A DNA stretch of 64,000 nt from Escherichia coli. Lineage in GTDB: Bacteria > Pseudomonadota > Gammaproteobacteria > Enterobacterales > Enterobacteriaceae. Shown here one piece after another: positions 17,290 through 21,854 of the stretch. The first letter of the stretch is position 1. Each line of letters begins with the position of its first letter. The DNA lies in the NCBI RefSeq assembly GCF_024223415.1, contig NZ_CP100500.1. One strand, 5' to 3'. A program made the translations under genes and the position numbers. The notes under the pieces are model-generated. The model was not told the origin of the DNA and did not search any database. It saw only the letters and a list, made by a program, of their open reading frames with translations.

Positions 17290-18294
17290 TTACTGGTCGA
17301 TGGACAGTTTATGGACACTTTCAGCCAGCGGATTAAAGCTGATCGCATCCTGTAAAAAGTCCGGTGAAAAATGCGCATACGTCATCGTTTGCTGAATCGT
17401 GGCGTGACCCAGGATCCTCTGCAACGTGACGATGTTCCCGCCGTTCATCATGAAATGCGTGGCGAACGTGTGCCGCATGACATGCGTGGCCTGCCCTTTG
17501 GGTAAGTCGGGCTTCACCTCCTGAAGGATCTCCCTGAAACTGAGATAATCAACCTGATATAACAGGCCGGTCCGGCGGGTTTTAATTAACGGCACAACGG
17601 AATCAGCTACAGGAACCGAGCGCGATTTCCCGTTCTTTGTGTTAAAGAACGTCACCCTGTTACCCACGATGTGTTCCCCGCGAAGCGTTGACGCCTCTTT
17701 CCATCTGGCCCCGGTCGAAAGGCACAGAATGGCAATGCGTCGTGCATCACCCTCAAGCCGTTTCAGAAGGCGATCAATCTCGTCATCTGAAAGAAAGGCC
17801 ATTTCTGTATTCTGAACCTTGAGTTTACGTATTCCGCGCACAGGGTTTTCGTTATGATAAACCTCCGCGTCAATTAACAACGAAAACATCGCAGATAAGG
17901 CGCACAGGTCGCGATTGATACTGGACGGCATCAGTCCCGCCTGCAACTTATCCGAGCGATACTCAATCATGAATTTTCGTGTCATCTGGCTGGCGCGCGG
18001 GTCCCCCATTTCACGTATCACCTTCTCCAGTCTGGTTCTGTAGGTATCACCATATGCCTGATTACGACCATCAAGCATCCACCACACCTCAATCAGTTCT
18101 GATAACCGCCGTTGATCGGCGGGCCTTGCCTGCCACGGGTTATTGTGGAAATTCTGAAGAACGTATCTTTCGAATTCCTGCGCCTTTGATTTCAGGGTGA
18201 AAATCTTACGAATCCGCCTTCCTCCCGCCCCCTGAGGCCTTACATCAACCTGATAACGTCCGTCTTTGAGTTGCTTAATCGACATGATCAGCAC
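17290..18294 (-). CDS. int: P2-type tyrosine integrase
   Basis: 334 aa; N-terminus (SIKQLKDGRYQVDVRPQG...) and C-terminal catalytic region (ILCLSTGARW..., HVMRHTFATHFMMNGGNIVTLQRILGH...YAHF) resemble P2 Int. Confidence 0.9.
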   Translation of the reverse strand: MLIMSIKQLKDGRYQVDVRPQGAGGRRIRKIFTLKSKAQEFERYVLQNFHNNPWQARPADQRRLSELIEVWWMLDGRNQAYGDTYRTRLEKVIREMGDPRASQMTRKFMIEYRSDKLQAGLMPSSINRDLCALSAMFSLLIDAEVYHNENPVRGIRKLKVQNTEMAFLSDDEIDRLLKRLEGDARRIAILCLSTGARWKEASTLRGEHIVGNRVTFFNTKNGKSRSVPVADSVVPLIKTRRTGLLYQVDYLSFREILQEVKPDLPKGQATHVMRHTFATHFMMNGGNIVTLQRILGHATIQQTMTYAHFSPDFLQDAISFNPLAESVHKLSIDQ

Positions 18295-18354
18295 CTCCGA
18301 CGGATAAACCTGTTAACCCCTGCTTACTGAACGCCGCCCGTTCAATATACAGCG

Positions 18355-18696
18355 TCAGCCAGCATTGCGGCCTGATTGGGGTGATTTTTGGGTATTGCGG
18401 GTTGAAACCTGATCGTCCTCCGACTGCGTGGAGCCATCAAGAGAGAGAGCCGGGGCGATCTGACCGGCAACAGGTAGCGTCTTATCTTTGATTAACCAGA
18501 ACATATATTTTTCAAACCGATCCACTTGAAGGACGGCCTCAACAATCTTTGCTCTGGCGATCTTTTGCCCTGACTCATAATTCCTGACAGTTGCCAGAGA
18601 TAACCCTGTAATATCAGCAAATTGCTTTTGAGTTAGCCCTTCCGTCTTGCGTATCAAACGCAACTTTTTCGCATAGTCTATTGACAAGATACTCAT
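18355..18696 (-). CDS. P2 C-like immunity repressor
   Basis: 113 aa with the motifs YESG, KYMFWLI and GQIAPAL in the same order as I recall for P2 C; transcribed divergently from the Cox-like gene. Confidence 0.75.
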   Translation of the reverse strand: MSILSIDYAKKLRLIRKTEGLTQKQFADITGLSLATVRNYESGQKIARAKIVEAVLQVDRFEKYMFWLIKDKTLPVAGQIAPALSLDGSTQSEDDQVSTRNTQKSPQSGRNAG

Positions 18697-18719
18697 TTGG
18701 GGATTAATCTCCTACAAAA

Positions 18720-18737
18720 GATAACCGTACGGTTATC
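18720..18737. promoter_or_regulatory. perfect 18-bp palindrome (putative operator) in the repressor / cox-like divergent intergenic region
   Basis: gataaccgtacggttatc is a perfect inverted repeat, followed by the direct repeat tcatcaaaa x2. Confidence 0.5.
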
Positions 18738-18799
18738 TTTACAAGTCATCAAAAATCATCAAAAGGCGCAACAAGCGCACCAATGCAAGAGGATAACAA

Positions 18800-19321
18800 A
18801 TGCGGGAGATTATTGCCGACAAAGAGTTATCTGGCGCTCAACCGGTTCAGGATGATGGCGCGGACAATGAATTCATTGAAGCTGCCAACGACAACGAACA
18901 CCTGGAAACCAAAACCAGACCGTCCTACAAAAAGGGCGCAACCCTACGACTGGACGGCCCAGTCGCAGGACTTGTGTCACTGGAAAAAGGGGCTGCCTAT
19001 CTGGGGGTAACAAAATCTGCGCTACGCGCCGCCATTCAGCGCGGGCAGATGCCGGGTCACAAAACGCGCTCAAATCCCGAAGATGAAAAGTCAGACGGTA
19101 CATGGTGGTTTAACGCCAAAGCCTGGGACGAACTAGCCGACGAACTACTGGAGTGCGAACCGCCAGAGTGGCACAACTGGAAAAGCTACTGGACGTACGA
19201 CCGCAAGAAAAGAAAGTTTTCACCGGCAAACAAGGAGGACTGCCAGACCGTTAAAGGTAAGCAGGTTTACTCCCCCAGAGTTTCAAAACTGGAGCAACTC
19301 AAAAACAACCAGCCCGGCTAA
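18800..19321 (+). CDS. Cox-like excisionase/regulator with an N-terminal extension
   Basis: 173 aa; the central region (AYLGVTKSALRAAIQRGQMPG ... GTWWFNAKAWDE) parallels P2 Cox. First rightward gene after the repressor. Confidence 0.6.
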   Translation: MREIIADKELSGAQPVQDDGADNEFIEAANDNEHLETKTRPSYKKGATLRLDGPVAGLVSLEKGAAYLGVTKSALRAAIQRGQMPGHKTRSNPEDEKSDGTWWFNAKAWDELADELLECEPPEWHNWKSYWTYDRKKRKFSPANKEDCQTVKGKQVYSPRVSKLEQLKNNQPG

Positions 19322-19329
19322 ACACGAAA

Positions 19330-19536
19330 ATGACCAGCAATATCATCAGCGCCATTCTGACACTTGTTTTTATTGAGATAGGCGTAATAGCGATCTATTT
19401 GTTTCGTAAGTTAACGGGACATGAAGAACGCTTTATTGAACTCAGCATTGAATATATCGCCGCTTATACCAAAGGACTTTTCCCGGCAGCTATTGGGGCG
19501 ATGTTTATAGCGTTTGTTATCTGGTTTATCGGGTGA
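19330..19536 (+). CDS. small hydrophobic membrane protein (hypothetical)
   Basis: 68-aa ORF with two hydrophobic segments; weak ribosome-binding site. Confidence 0.4.
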   Translation: MTSNIISAILTLVFIEIGVIAIYLFRKLTGHEERFIELSIEYIAAYTKGLFPAAIGAMFIAFVIWFIG

Positions 19537-19787
19537 GAAACCTGATAAACCACAACTACTGCAATGAGGGTAATTATGTGTGGCATGGACAAATTGGACC
19601 TTATGTTAATTGTAATACTATCAATTAACTTCGGTTACCTCTTAAGCGGCGTAATTCTCATGTGCGGAGGCAAACGAAAATGAACCAGCAGTCCGCAAAA
19701 CGTGAACACAATGCGATGCGATTTAATCGCAAATATTTTGAGTTCGCCGCTATGCCGGAATAATTAAATCTGTACAGAGTCTTTAAC

Positions 19788-20126
19788 ATGAAACAGCAAC
19801 GTAATTCACGCTTTCGTAATGGTGCTGAACGTCACGCTAACCGTTTCGCTACCAGTGCATCACGTAGTAACTCCCGCTACAGCCTGAGCGAGACACACGC
19901 AACACCGGGCGGTCATGCTGTAAAACAGACTGGTCAACACACCTGGCTGATTGAGCAGGCCGGACTCGTGATCCACAGATGCCACCGCAATCCGTTTACC
20001 GGAAACCGCATTTTTGCACTGAGCAGCGGCGACAATCAGTTCGGACAGGATTTCACACTGCACGAAGCCTTGCGAACTGCCGACCGCTTAATCGAGGGGC
20101 GCAGCTTTCAGCATACCGACTACTAA
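19788..20126 (+). CDS. hypothetical early-region protein
   Basis: 112-aa ORF in the rightward early operon; no recognisable motif. Confidence 0.45.
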   Translation: MKQQRNSRFRNGAERHANRFATSASRSNSRYSLSETHATPGGHAVKQTGQHTWLIEQAGLVIHRCHRNPFTGNRIFALSSGDNQFGQDFTLHEALRTADRLIEGRSFQHTDY

Positions 20127-20164
20127 GGCAAAAGGAGTCTTAATAAGACAGAAGAGGCAGCAAG

Positions 20165-20407
20165 ATGAAAAGAGCCTATAAAGAACTCATTAACCACGCG
20201 CTTCAGAATTACCATTACGGACTTACAAGCCGTGGCACTAACGGTGACGCTGTTTCACTTGCAGCACTGACTACAGCAATCAAGGGCCTGACCTGTTGCG
20301 CCTTTGGTTCCGGAGATAATGAAGCTCTGACGGAATTACAGGCCATTAATAAAGACCTGTCTGAAGGAAACGTAATAACCCCCTTTGTAATTCAGGAGGA
20401 AGCATGA
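20165..20407 (+). CDS. hypothetical early-region protein
   Basis: 80-aa ORF with an upstream AGAGG; its stop overlaps the next small ORF (ATGA). Confidence 0.5.
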   Translation: MKRAYKELINHALQNYHYGLTSRGTNGDAVSLAALTTAIKGLTCCAFGSGDNEALTELQAINKDLSEGNVITPFVIQEEA

Positions 20408-20529
20408 GCGTATTTATGTCATGGTTAATTCTTATCCTTGCCATTATTTGCGCTGTGGGGATTATGCGGGTAATTAACAGCATTAACACCATTGAATCGT
20501 TATTTACTGGCGATAAGCGCCGTAAATAA
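20404..20529 (+). CDS. 41-aa hydrophobic peptide (hypothetical)
   Basis: Strong Shine-Dalgarno (aggagga) precedes an ATG overlapping the upstream stop; MSVFMSWLILILAIICAVGIMRVINSINTIESLFTGDKRRK is a single-helix membrane peptide. Confidence 0.45.
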   Translation: MSVFMSWLILILAIICAVGIMRVINSINTIESLFTGDKRRK

Positions 20530-20609
20530 ACAGGCGTTTAACACCAGAAACAACCAGAAACATCCGCTCACGCGGAGGGGTTGACCCGCTCAAAAAGGAG
20601 AAATCAGGA

Positions 20610-20903
20610 ATGCTTAATAATAAAAAAAACCGAATCATTGATAACAGTGAACAGGTCAACAAAATAATCGAAGGCACAAACAAATTAATTAAGAAAAAAA
20701 ACAAACTAAGCCGTGAATTAATGGAACATCCGGAAGAAATATTATTAGCCATGATGCACCAGACAGAAGCGATAGCCATCGCCCTTGCCGTGCAGGCGCT
20801 TTCTGAGTTCCGGGAAGAAAACATCAGGCTGGCTCAGGAGCTGAAAAACCTCAGACGTCAGCTTCAGAGCACTGAGGCTGGCACGTCATCACGAATGCAC
20901 TGA
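20610..20903 (+). CDS. hypothetical Lys-rich coiled-coil protein
   Basis: 97-aa ORF with a good RBS (aaaggag), AT-rich. Confidence 0.5.
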   Translation: MLNNKKNRIIDNSEQVNKIIEGTNKLIKKKNKLSRELMEHPEEILLAMMHQTEAIAIALAVQALSEFREENIRLAQELKNLRRQLQSTEAGTSSRMH

Positions 20904-20913
20904 GGGCCACACC

Positions 20914-21123
20914 ATGACTGCAATTCTGAGAAGACGCAATAAAACGCTTTTTACCGATACATCCGGGATGGAATACGAAGTGGAAAGCAGTGTCATAGCC
21001 ACCACCACCCGATGCCCGGCAGGTGACGAACTGATTTACGTCCACCTGACGGACGGGTCACAGATAACCGTCCTGACAGAGTCATGGCGCGAACTCGAGA
21101 TAATAAGCGAGGTAAGAACATGA
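20914..21123 (+). CDS. hypothetical protein
   Basis: 69-aa ORF translationally coupled to the next ORF (ATGA at 21120). Confidence 0.4.
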   Translation: MTAILRRRNKTLFTDTSGMEYEVESSVIATTTRCPAGDELIYVHLTDGSQITVLTESWRELEIISEVRT

Positions 21124-21332
21124 GCAGCAAACACGATACCAACGCACGCAGACCAGGCAAAGAGGCGCGTCACCATATCGCCGTAATGCGCAACCTGCTT
21201 ATGAGTGAAATCGACGATTTTGTGGCAGGCCTGGGGCAACCGGGCGAACCAGCAACACCAGGCCAGATACACAGGGAATTACGCCGCCGCGTGGAAAACG
21301 TCGTGGATTACGTCATAAACCCGAACGACTGA
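21120..21332 (+). CDS. hypothetical protein
   Basis: 70-aa ORF (MSSKHDTNARRPGKEARHHIAVMRNLL...), start overlapping the upstream stop. Confidence 0.45.
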   Translation: MSSKHDTNARRPGKEARHHIAVMRNLLMSEIDDFVAGLGQPGEPATPGQIHRELRRRVENVVDYVINPND

Positions 21333-21371
21333 CGGGAACATGGCGAGCGTCAGATGACACACGCAGGGCAC

Positions 21372-21854
21372 TTATCGGGACAAACCGATCGTAATCGCAG
21401 CCATCATCTTTTCAGCGAAAGAGAGAGATTCACGATGACTGATATTCAGAGACATACAGGCTTTGTTGTACGCCACATTTTCCATGCATTCCAGGACAGG
21501 AGAGTCATGCATCTCAAGCTCTGGAAGGCGTGCCAGCAGAGCTTCCGTACTGAGGAGGGCGCTTTTGGTAATCAACTCATTGTAGCGATGGGCATGCTCA
21601 CTCGCCGCCTGCGCACGTTGCCCGAAACGACATATGAAATTACAGGCTCCGAGAACCACCACCACTGCCCCCAGCACCCAGCCGAAATGCCAGCCGGCTA
21701 CGATGAACGCACCCGCCGCAAGGATCAAAATGTTGATGATCGCATCAAGGCGACGATTGAACACCGCCGCGATGCGCTCCAGCCAGTAGCTGTACCAGAG
21801 ACGGAACATGACCTCATCCCGTTCTCTCGATTTTTTACGTTGGTTGTTTTGCAT
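21372..21854 (-). CDS. two-transmembrane-helix protein, reverse-oriented inside the early region (hypothetical)
   Basis: 160 aa; charged N-terminus (MQNNQRKKSRERDE), two adjacent hydrophobic helices (AIINILILAAGAFIVAGWHFGWVLGAVVVVLGACNFI), then a ~90-aa soluble tail. Opposite strand to the flanking early genes. Confidence 0.55.
   Translation of the reverse strand: MQNNQRKKSRERDEVMFRLWYSYWLERIAAVFNRRLDAIINILILAAGAFIVAGWHFGWVLGAVVVVLGACNFICRFGQRAQAASEHAHRYNELITKSALLSTEALLARLPELEMHDSPVLECMENVAYNKACMSLNISHRESLSFAEKMMAAITIGLSR

Follow-up and report, generated by a model that had tools for sequence, protein, structure and literature searches.

We consider it quite likely that two very small open reading frames of an Escherichia coli prophage, here designated ORF1 (35 amino acids; MCGMDKLDLMLIVILSINFGYLLSGVILMCGGKRK) and ORF2 (41 amino acids; MSVFMSWLILILAIICAVGIMRVINSINTIESLFTGDKRRK), are genuine genes of a P2-like prophage, that they encode single-pass inner-membrane micro-proteins, and that they form part of the early lytic operon. 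Both ORFs are located in a DNA stretch of 64,000 nucleotides, to which we refer as the window. An initial annotation of this stretch had reported the two peptides, and both of them are encoded as it described. The position that it gave for ORF2 (20404-20529) was exact, but ORF1 is located at 19576-19683 rather than at 19577-19684, the latter frame being full of stop codons. The comparative evidence alone identifies these two ORFs of fewer than 50 codons, from a common type of E. coli prophage, as real genes.

A P2-like prophage and its early region

Between 17.3 and 23 kb, the window covers a prophage early region, the prophage being a P2-like one of E. coli and of the P88/Xuanwuvirus type (Table 1). 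The genes on the plus strand follow each other in the order cox, p68, ORF1, orf1b, DUF4761, DUF4754 and ORF2, after which more small genes are found, and in identical RefSeq records the same run extends to the genes for a 'derepression protein' and a replication endonuclease. This same-strand run begins at cox, beside the integrase and repressor genes that point the other way, and thus has the arrangement of a P2-type early (Pe) operon. The DNA of the early region is 100% identical to the chromosomes of several E. coli isolates from chicken, phages of the P88/Xuanwuvirus type match parts of it, and about 1016 of 5426 complete E. coli genomes match at least part of a 2.7-kb query from this region. 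Phage PhiR44_2, the record of which lists E. coli C as the host, bears ORF1 together with an ORF2 homologue. When the region was scanned for consensus promoters and terminators, no strong signal of either kind was found to break the operon. The scan, which as a consensus scan is weak evidence, returned five promoter-like sites versus 3.0 expected, none of which is well placed for either ORF. In P2-type phages the early operon downstream of cox (Pe/C) is repressed in lysogens. From the operon layout we infer that ORF1 and ORF2 would be expressed early in lytic growth. Both lie in the early region between cox and the replication gene and not beside an endolysin gene, so that neither qualifies as part of a holin or lysis cassette.

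The clustering of two small hydrophobic ORFs that had been proposed for this region is real, but the cluster comprises three hydrophobic genes, of which p68 had not been listed. The p68 protein shows 61-100% identity among the loci compared, and its pN/pS ratio is 0.36 in frame versus 0.74 and 1.28 out of frame. Within the plus-strand run of early genes, the minus strand (21372-21854) codes for a different hydrophobic protein, which has 160 amino acids and two hydrophobic segments next to each other. This protein is kept in related prophages (4832-5317 in locus L091 and 3172-3657 in locus L097) and has no above-threshold match in Pfam; on account of its opposite orientation, conservation and hydrophobicity it is a candidate for a moron gene expressed during lysogeny.

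Table 1. Positions of genes and signals in the prophage early region of the window
Feature	Position	Strand	Description	Basis
Phage integrase	17290-18294	minus		
CI-like HTH repressor	18355-18696	minus		
Cox	18800-19321	plus		
p68	19330-19536	plus	68 aa, two hydrophobic segments, directly after cox	phrog_14475, E 2e-40
143-nt segment	19537-19679	plus	bears ORF1	junction alignment
Shine-Dalgarno sequence of ORF1	19566-19570	plus	GAGGG, 5 nt before the ATG	read from sequence
ORF1	19576-19683	plus	35 aa, predicted single-TM micro-protein	translation, diverged homologue
orf1b	19680-19763	plus	27 aa, its ATG overlapping the stop of ORF1	frameshifted copy of a 35-aa ORF
DUF4761 gene	19788-20126	plus		
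DUF4754 gene	20165-20407	plus	80 aa, constant upstream partner of ORF2	Pfam PF15946, E 1.7e-10
ORF2 start context	20394-20407	plus	AGGAGG (20394-20399) and ATGA overlap (20404-20407)	read from sequence
ORF2	20404-20529	plus	41 aa, predicted single-TM micro-protein, WP_024211217.1	translation, conservation

ORF2 and the preceding DUF4754 gene

For comparison we used 80 loci on viral contigs that were anchored on the DUF4761 gene, together with six loci fetched earlier, which amounts to 86 loci. A homologue of ORF2 is present in all 86, with identities ranging from 46 to 100%, and its start codon is disrupted in a single copy. The ORF of the ORF2 family always directly follows the DUF4754 gene in related loci, and this arrangement is the same for the variants P0136, P0137 and P0007 and for loci L095-L097. 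The ATG of ORF2 overlaps the TGA of the DUF4754 gene in the sequence ATGA, and this type of overlap, in which the ATG begins one nucleotide before the first base of the stop codon, was observed in 90 of 92 loci (the window included), spanning three types of DUF4754 with a mutual identity of 26-33%. Good ribosome-binding sites had been noted for both ORFs, and we could confirm this for the GAGGG sequence 5 nt before ORF1 as well as for the AGGAGG sequence that ends 4 nt before the ATG of ORF2. This Shine-Dalgarno sequence is strong in the window type, whereas it is weak in most other types (GGGGAA, GGCGG). The overlap itself is thus the conserved feature, and its conservation despite weak Shine-Dalgarno sequences argues for coupling by termination and reinitiation. 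The translational coupling through overlapping start and stop codons that had been suggested for both ORFs is in this respect well founded for ORF2.

The substitution pattern indicates that the reading frame of ORF2 is under purifying selection. Among 38 distinct nucleotide sequences, the dN/dS ratios calculated by the Nei-Gojobori method were 0.21-0.26 in frame versus 0.56-2.6 in the two shifted frames, and the variable sites were distributed over the three codon positions as 9, 6 and 20, which is an excess at the third position. The pooled pN/pS ratio was 0.32 for ORF2 compared to 0.43 for DUF4754, the constraint on ORF2 being at least equal. Residues M1, S6, W7, L10, I11, A17 and G19 are invariant, residues R22, I24, I30 and E31 are nearly so, and the small-residue spacing S/A13-x-x-x-A17 is kept. 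The ORF2 product contains one hydrophobic stretch, with a best 19-residue Kyte-Doolittle mean of 2.78, and AlphaFold2 predicts a single helix comprising residues 2-38 (pLDDT 83).

The ORF2 family is narrow. A profile search of 1.84 billion representative proteins identified 18 clusters (best E 1e-21), and tblastn identified 12 records of P88-like phages with E-values from 1e-9 to 3e-4, the similarity extending over the full length. An alignment scan of species-representative genomes with DUF4761 yielded only four loci, two of which are doubtful. In loci from Hafnia and Citrobacter, uncalled ORFs of 49 and 47 amino acids, respectively, are present in the gap after the DUF4754 gene; the ATGA overlap is kept in these loci, and the two versions share the core ...CFSW-hydrophobic helix-R.... 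An apparent relation of the Hafnia variant to the YnaM/YnfT family of small prophage proteins (NCBIfam) was dismissed as noise, the score being 11 bits against a cutoff of 35. The expectation that such micro-proteins would be unannotated does not apply to ORF2, which is already included in RefSeq, and a homologue of which is named 'membrane protein' in phage P88 and 'Prophage membrane protein' in UniRef.

The predicted structure of the DUF4754 protein is a three-helix bundle (pLDDT 88), and a fold search with this model against the PDB and BFVD returned generic helical bundles only, with best E-values of about 0.5-1. A literature search found no mention of DUF4754 or DUF4761. Because DUF4754 is divergent, only two phage records were obtained when it was used as a tblastn query. 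We propose that DUF4754 and ORF2 form a fixed two-gene cassette in which ORF2 takes the second place. In view of the ATGA overlap, ribosomes that finish the translation of DUF4754 would most likely re-initiate on ORF2, so that the two products would be made together. The helix of ORF2 would then reside in the membrane, and the most likely role of its amphipathic cytoplasmic tail would be to work with the soluble three-helix-bundle protein. The pairing could, however, also reflect mere adjacency within one mosaic module. A bolder interpretation, to which we attach only a tentative and rather low likelihood, is that DUF4754 and ORF2 constitute an obligate two-component, membrane-targeted module with a hitherto undescribed early role in P88-like phages, for instance in host takeover or in counter-defence at the inner membrane, the soluble bundle being tethered or regulated by a co-translated membrane helix of 37-49 amino acids. 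Separately, the ORF1 family would represent a 'micro-moron', with about 110 nt that would pass as one unit from phage genome to phage genome, its limits lying almost exactly at its own Shine-Dalgarno sequence and stop codon. The strictly conserved and translationally coupled combination of DUF4754 and a micro-protein provides a concrete way into the study of two uncharacterised domains.

Downstream of ORF2 we observed a hairpin (20563-20576) with a GC-rich stem of 5 bp, TCCGC-loop-GCGGA followed by GG, which is present in every cassette type and is located 33-46 nt after the ORF2 stop codon in loci L003-L097. The loop is free to vary (TCAC, ATTC, ATTA, ACTC, ATCT, AACA, AACG), and compensatory changes were found at two stem pairs (CCGC/GCGG to CCGT/ACGG, and to CTGC/GCAG). 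Pairing holds in 96.9% of cells, and 8 of 500 shuffles had as many double changes as were observed. The 3' arm of the hairpin together with the GG reads GGAGG, and the hairpin is situated where the downstream genes switch mosaic types.

ORF1 in the variable slot between cox and DUF4761

ORF1 starts 39 nt past the stop codon of p68 and is therefore not coupled to the upstream gene. An overlap does exist at the other end of ORF1, the TGA of which overlaps the ATG of orf1b in the sequence ATGA (19680-19683), but this partner is frameshifted in the window, and coupling to a downstream ORF is missing in the diverged homologue of ORF1 that is described below. In the window, orf1b has one G missing relative to every other copy, resulting in a product of 27 instead of 35 amino acids. 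Its Shine-Dalgarno sequence GGAGG (19666-19670) falls within the 3' end of ORF1, and the C-terminal GGKRK of ORF1 is encoded by this sequence and the adjacent spacer. The orf1b family (MN.QQ..E..NM.F.R.YF..GRY.G) resembles the N-terminus of DUF4761, to which it is fused in frame in loci of the L028 type. In view of this in-frame read-through, orf1b may have arisen from an N-terminal extension of DUF4761 by detachment or duplication.

ORF1 was found in 234 of the 5426 complete E. coli genomes, always with at least 95% identity, and in 25 of the 86 DUF4761-anchored loci. Here the expectation of a missing annotation was correct for PGAP, the pipeline of RefSeq, but not for other pipelines, as ORF1 has been called in phage PhiR44_2 and in several GenBank or UniRef entries (deposits include ELC37333.1 and XSB42690.1). 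Gene callers, including PGAP, leave gaps in the prophage loci (2892-3041 in L092, 3906-4049 in L094 and around 1840-1950 in L121), and the genes missed by them include the Hafnia and Citrobacter homologues of ORF2 as well as both subtypes of ORF1, PGAP also missing the L097 type. In one metagenomic record a form of ORF1 with 39 amino acids carries the label 'DUF1146', which Pfam does not reproduce.

Sister prophages lack the 143-nt segment that bears ORF1. In these, the p68 stop codon is followed by about 14 nt and then by the start of orf1b/DUF4761 (ATGAATAAG). The interval between cox and DUF4761 (19322-19787 in the window; loci L002, L020, L028, L052, L091 and L097) is a hotspot where the cargo varies, and different prophages contain in it p68 alone, p68 with ORF1 and orf1b, a 137-amino-acid protein with a minus-strand ORF, a pair of 48 and 69 amino acids, or an L097-type homologue of ORF1 with an ORF of 71 amino acids. 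ORF1 was found alongside both subtypes of ORF2, and its L097-type homologue occurs without p68, which shows that ORF1, ORF2 and p68 are independent and do not form one system.

Locus L097, which had been fetched for its ORF2 variant, contains behind a different upstream gene an ORF of 36 amino acids (MCDLSKAELIAIILFAIDFGFLLSGAILLPAINRKN) with the sequence AAGGAG 7 nt before its 'MC' start; the same type is also present in L120/L121. This ORF aligns with ORF1 without gaps at 46-49% identity. A reciprocal tblastn search of the L097 ORF against all phage records recovered ORF1 with E = 1e-3, and the observed BLOSUM62 score was reached by none of 20000 shuffles. The nucleotide identity is 60% within the ORF versus 27% and 25% in the two 60-nt flanks. 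The differences fall on the three codon positions as 13, 9 and 20, and the in-frame values of pS and pN are 0.76 and 0.31, as compared to pS values of 0.30-0.35 and a pN value of 0.44 in the shifted frames. This selection test on ORF1 is one deep comparison with saturated dS, because the family consists of two subtypes only. No further subtype was detected in the fetched loci or in an index of 5.8 billion proteins that was searched with a padded alignment as query. Conserved positions are C2, K6, F19-G20, L22-L23-S24-G25, the terminal R-K and a mid-helix Asn/Asp at position 18. There is an upstream in-frame ATG for ORF1 at 19564, but the homology starts at 'MC' and the Shine-Dalgarno sequence of L097 precedes that point, which supports the start that gives 35 amino acids. 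Taken together, the pattern of divergence indicates that ORF1 is a real gene in a protein family of two subtypes that is under purifying selection. The L097 homologue thereby overturned the view that ORF1 was an orphan that does not vary and gives no signal of selection. The initial annotation had called for conservation of the reading frames in related prophages, and for both ORFs the comparison with diverged homologues bears this out in the form of coding-type substitution patterns.

It has to be considered whether ORF1 is no functional gene but an ORF that arose by chance or is decaying within an AT-rich insert, its hydrophobicity being due to T-rich sequence, so that ORF2 alone would be real. 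The 11 distinct ORF1 sequences of the window subtype differ by one substitution, Val26Ala, which is nonsynonymous and which, being the only one, makes a selection test within the subtype impossible; the helix change G25R is among the rare variants. This sole nonsynonymous change would suit a chance ORF, as would the omission of ORF1 by PGAP, its absence from sister prophages where p68 abuts orf1b, and the fact that its GGKRK C-terminus is encoded by the Shine-Dalgarno sequence and spacer of orf1b. Moreover, 5.4% of 5000 dinucleotide-preserving shuffles of the ORF1 segment yielded an ATG-initiated ORF of at least 35 codons. However, only 1 of the 5000 shuffles gave an ORF of this length that was also comparable in hydrophobicity, at the level of a transmembrane segment, and the hydrophobic ORF is not an artefact of composition. 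A homologue of about 47% identity keeps frame, start, length and hydrophobic pattern, the homology ends at the borders of the ORF, and the substitutions are enriched at synonymous and third positions. Both family members have a well-placed Shine-Dalgarno sequence, and there is 1 variable site in 104 nt of ORF1 DNA as opposed to 23 in 354 nt of the flanks. We therefore regard a chance origin of ORF1 as improbable.

Folding of the RNA of the ORF1 region was no better than that of shuffled sequences (z = +0.14), and a structured RNA was rejected as an explanation of this region on that value. An inverted repeat is present at the p68 stop codon (19522-19552), which is not conserved, since its right arm contains 19546 and 19549, two of the three positions that vary between p68 and ORF1.

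Judging from its borders in the different prophages, ORF1 appears to move as a self-contained cassette, bounded by its own Shine-Dalgarno sequence and stop codon, within the variable slot. We propose that it is an independent and self-contained micro-gene: it is preceded by a ribosome-binding site of its own and lies in the slot for variable cargo that separates cox from DUF4761. The GC content of the ORF1 segment is 0.39, below the values of 0.53-0.54 for the neighbouring cox and DUF4761 genes. Such a mobile cassette of low GC content in a variable slot would also be in line with ORF1 and ORF2 being lysogenic-conversion (moron) genes, which as membrane proteins would keep the DNA of superinfecting phages from entering (superinfection exclusion) or alter a function of the host envelope in the lysogen. 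Superinfection exclusion is a common role of small phage membrane proteins. Against such a role, both ORFs are placed within the plus-strand early operon after cox, which is repressed in P2-type lysogens, the consensus scan, which as noted is weak evidence, found no well-placed promoter or terminator at either ORF, and ORF2 depends on the overlap with an upstream early gene. Expression from the prophage for lysogenic conversion is thus an explanation with little probability.

Possible roles and relation to known small membrane proteins

ORF1, ORF2, orf1b and their variants had no match in Pfam, NCBIfam, PHROGs or PADLOC (E limits of 0.1, 10, 0.1 and 1, respectively), and Rfam returned no family over 18300-21400 at E-values up to 1. 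No match to a family, fold, defence system or RNA points to a function of ORF1 or ORF2, and the suggested modulation of host membrane functions is conjectural. Each product was initially predicted to have one transmembrane helix, and the hydrophobicity profiles agree with this: ORF1 has one hydrophobic stretch with a best 19-residue Kyte-Doolittle mean of 2.26, and the ORF2 value and AlphaFold2 model given above likewise correspond to a single helix. The basic residues are C-terminal in both proteins (KRK in ORF1; R22 and KRRK in ORF2), from which the positive-inside rule would predict an N-out/C-in orientation. Both would accordingly consist of a very short periplasmic N-terminus, one transmembrane helix and a basic cytoplasmic tail. 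The conserved mid-helix Asn/Asp and the G-x-x-x-S-G motif suggest that ORF1 may act by helix-helix association, either with itself or with a membrane protein of the host.

The same features raise the question whether ORF1 and ORF2 are membrane-damaging proteins, either toxins resembling those of type I systems (Ldr/Fst/Hok-like) or viroporins, that would form inner-membrane oligomers and dissipate the proton-motive force for host shut-off, lysis timing or abortive infection. Ldr peptides are 35 amino acids long and end in a basic tail, which is the size and ending of ORF1 as well. More generally, a length of 35-41 amino acids, a single transmembrane helix and a short basic C-terminal tail fit type I toxins (PMC12648545), and the mid-helix Asn/Asp and GxxxSG motif of ORF1 would favour oligomerisation of helices. 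Nevertheless, we consider such toxin activity unlikely. With permissive E-values, too, Pfam, NCBIfam, PHROGs and PADLOC gave no match to a toxin family, and neither ORF was assigned to the Hok, Ldr, Fst, Ibs, ShoB, TisB, DinQ or Zor families. Rfam gave no known antitoxin RNA family within 18300-21400, which leaves some room for a novel RNA, no antisense or minus-strand promoter or terminator was found near either ORF, and the ORF1 mRNA did not differ from shuffles in its folding (z = +0.14). Both genes are embedded in an operon, with ORF2 being translationally coupled, unlike stand-alone toxin loci, and early depolarisation of the membrane would hurt the replication of the phage itself.

The reading that we prefer, with ORF1 and ORF2 as early membrane micro-proteins of a P2-like prophage, places them in the well-known category of small phage accessory membrane proteins. 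Their biology is probably ordinary, that of a phage accessory membrane protein, and the value of these genes thus lies mainly in annotation and in their use as a tractable test case. As far as annotation is concerned, ORF2 was already covered, while ORF1 and its only relative are systematically missed by the RefSeq pipeline.

Among known proteins, ORF2 is most directly related to the 37-amino-acid 'membrane protein' of P88 ('Prophage membrane protein' in UniRef; MSIFISWLVLIISVACAIGIMRIIHSVKKIERFFTGE), which belongs to the same family with 54-57% identity. The members of this family share with ORF2 the place after DUF4754, the ATGA overlap and the N-terminal transmembrane helix, while ORF2 of the window differs from them by its length of 41 amino acids, its KRRK tail and its strong AGGAGG Shine-Dalgarno sequence. 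Type I toxins such as Ldr, Fst, Hok, TisB, IbsC, ShoB and ZorO have fewer than 60 amino acids, one transmembrane helix and short charged ends, and some of them are borne by prophages (PMC12648545). ORF1 and ORF2 share the small size and the single predicted transmembrane helix with these toxins. However, they are embedded in an operon and driven by a Shine-Dalgarno sequence or by coupling, whereas the toxins are encoded by RNA-repressed stand-alone loci. Small membrane-protein regulators of bacteria, with fewer than 50 amino acids and a single transmembrane helix, bind and modulate a larger membrane protein (PMC12648545). The small-xxx-small motifs of ORF2 (S13xxxA17) and ORF1 (G20xxxS24) would fit this mode of action, although these regulators, to which ORF1 and ORF2 have no homology, are encoded by the host chromosome and have known partners. 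ORF1 and ORF2, as predicted integral membrane helices, differ from lambda Kil and T7 Gp0.4, which inhibit FtsZ as soluble proteins that lack a transmembrane helix, and have no sequence similarity to them. Kil and Gp0.4 are also very small, apparently non-essential early lytic proteins that act on host machinery (PMC11323111), and small early phage proteins of this kind may offer the nearest functional analogy for ORF1 and ORF2.
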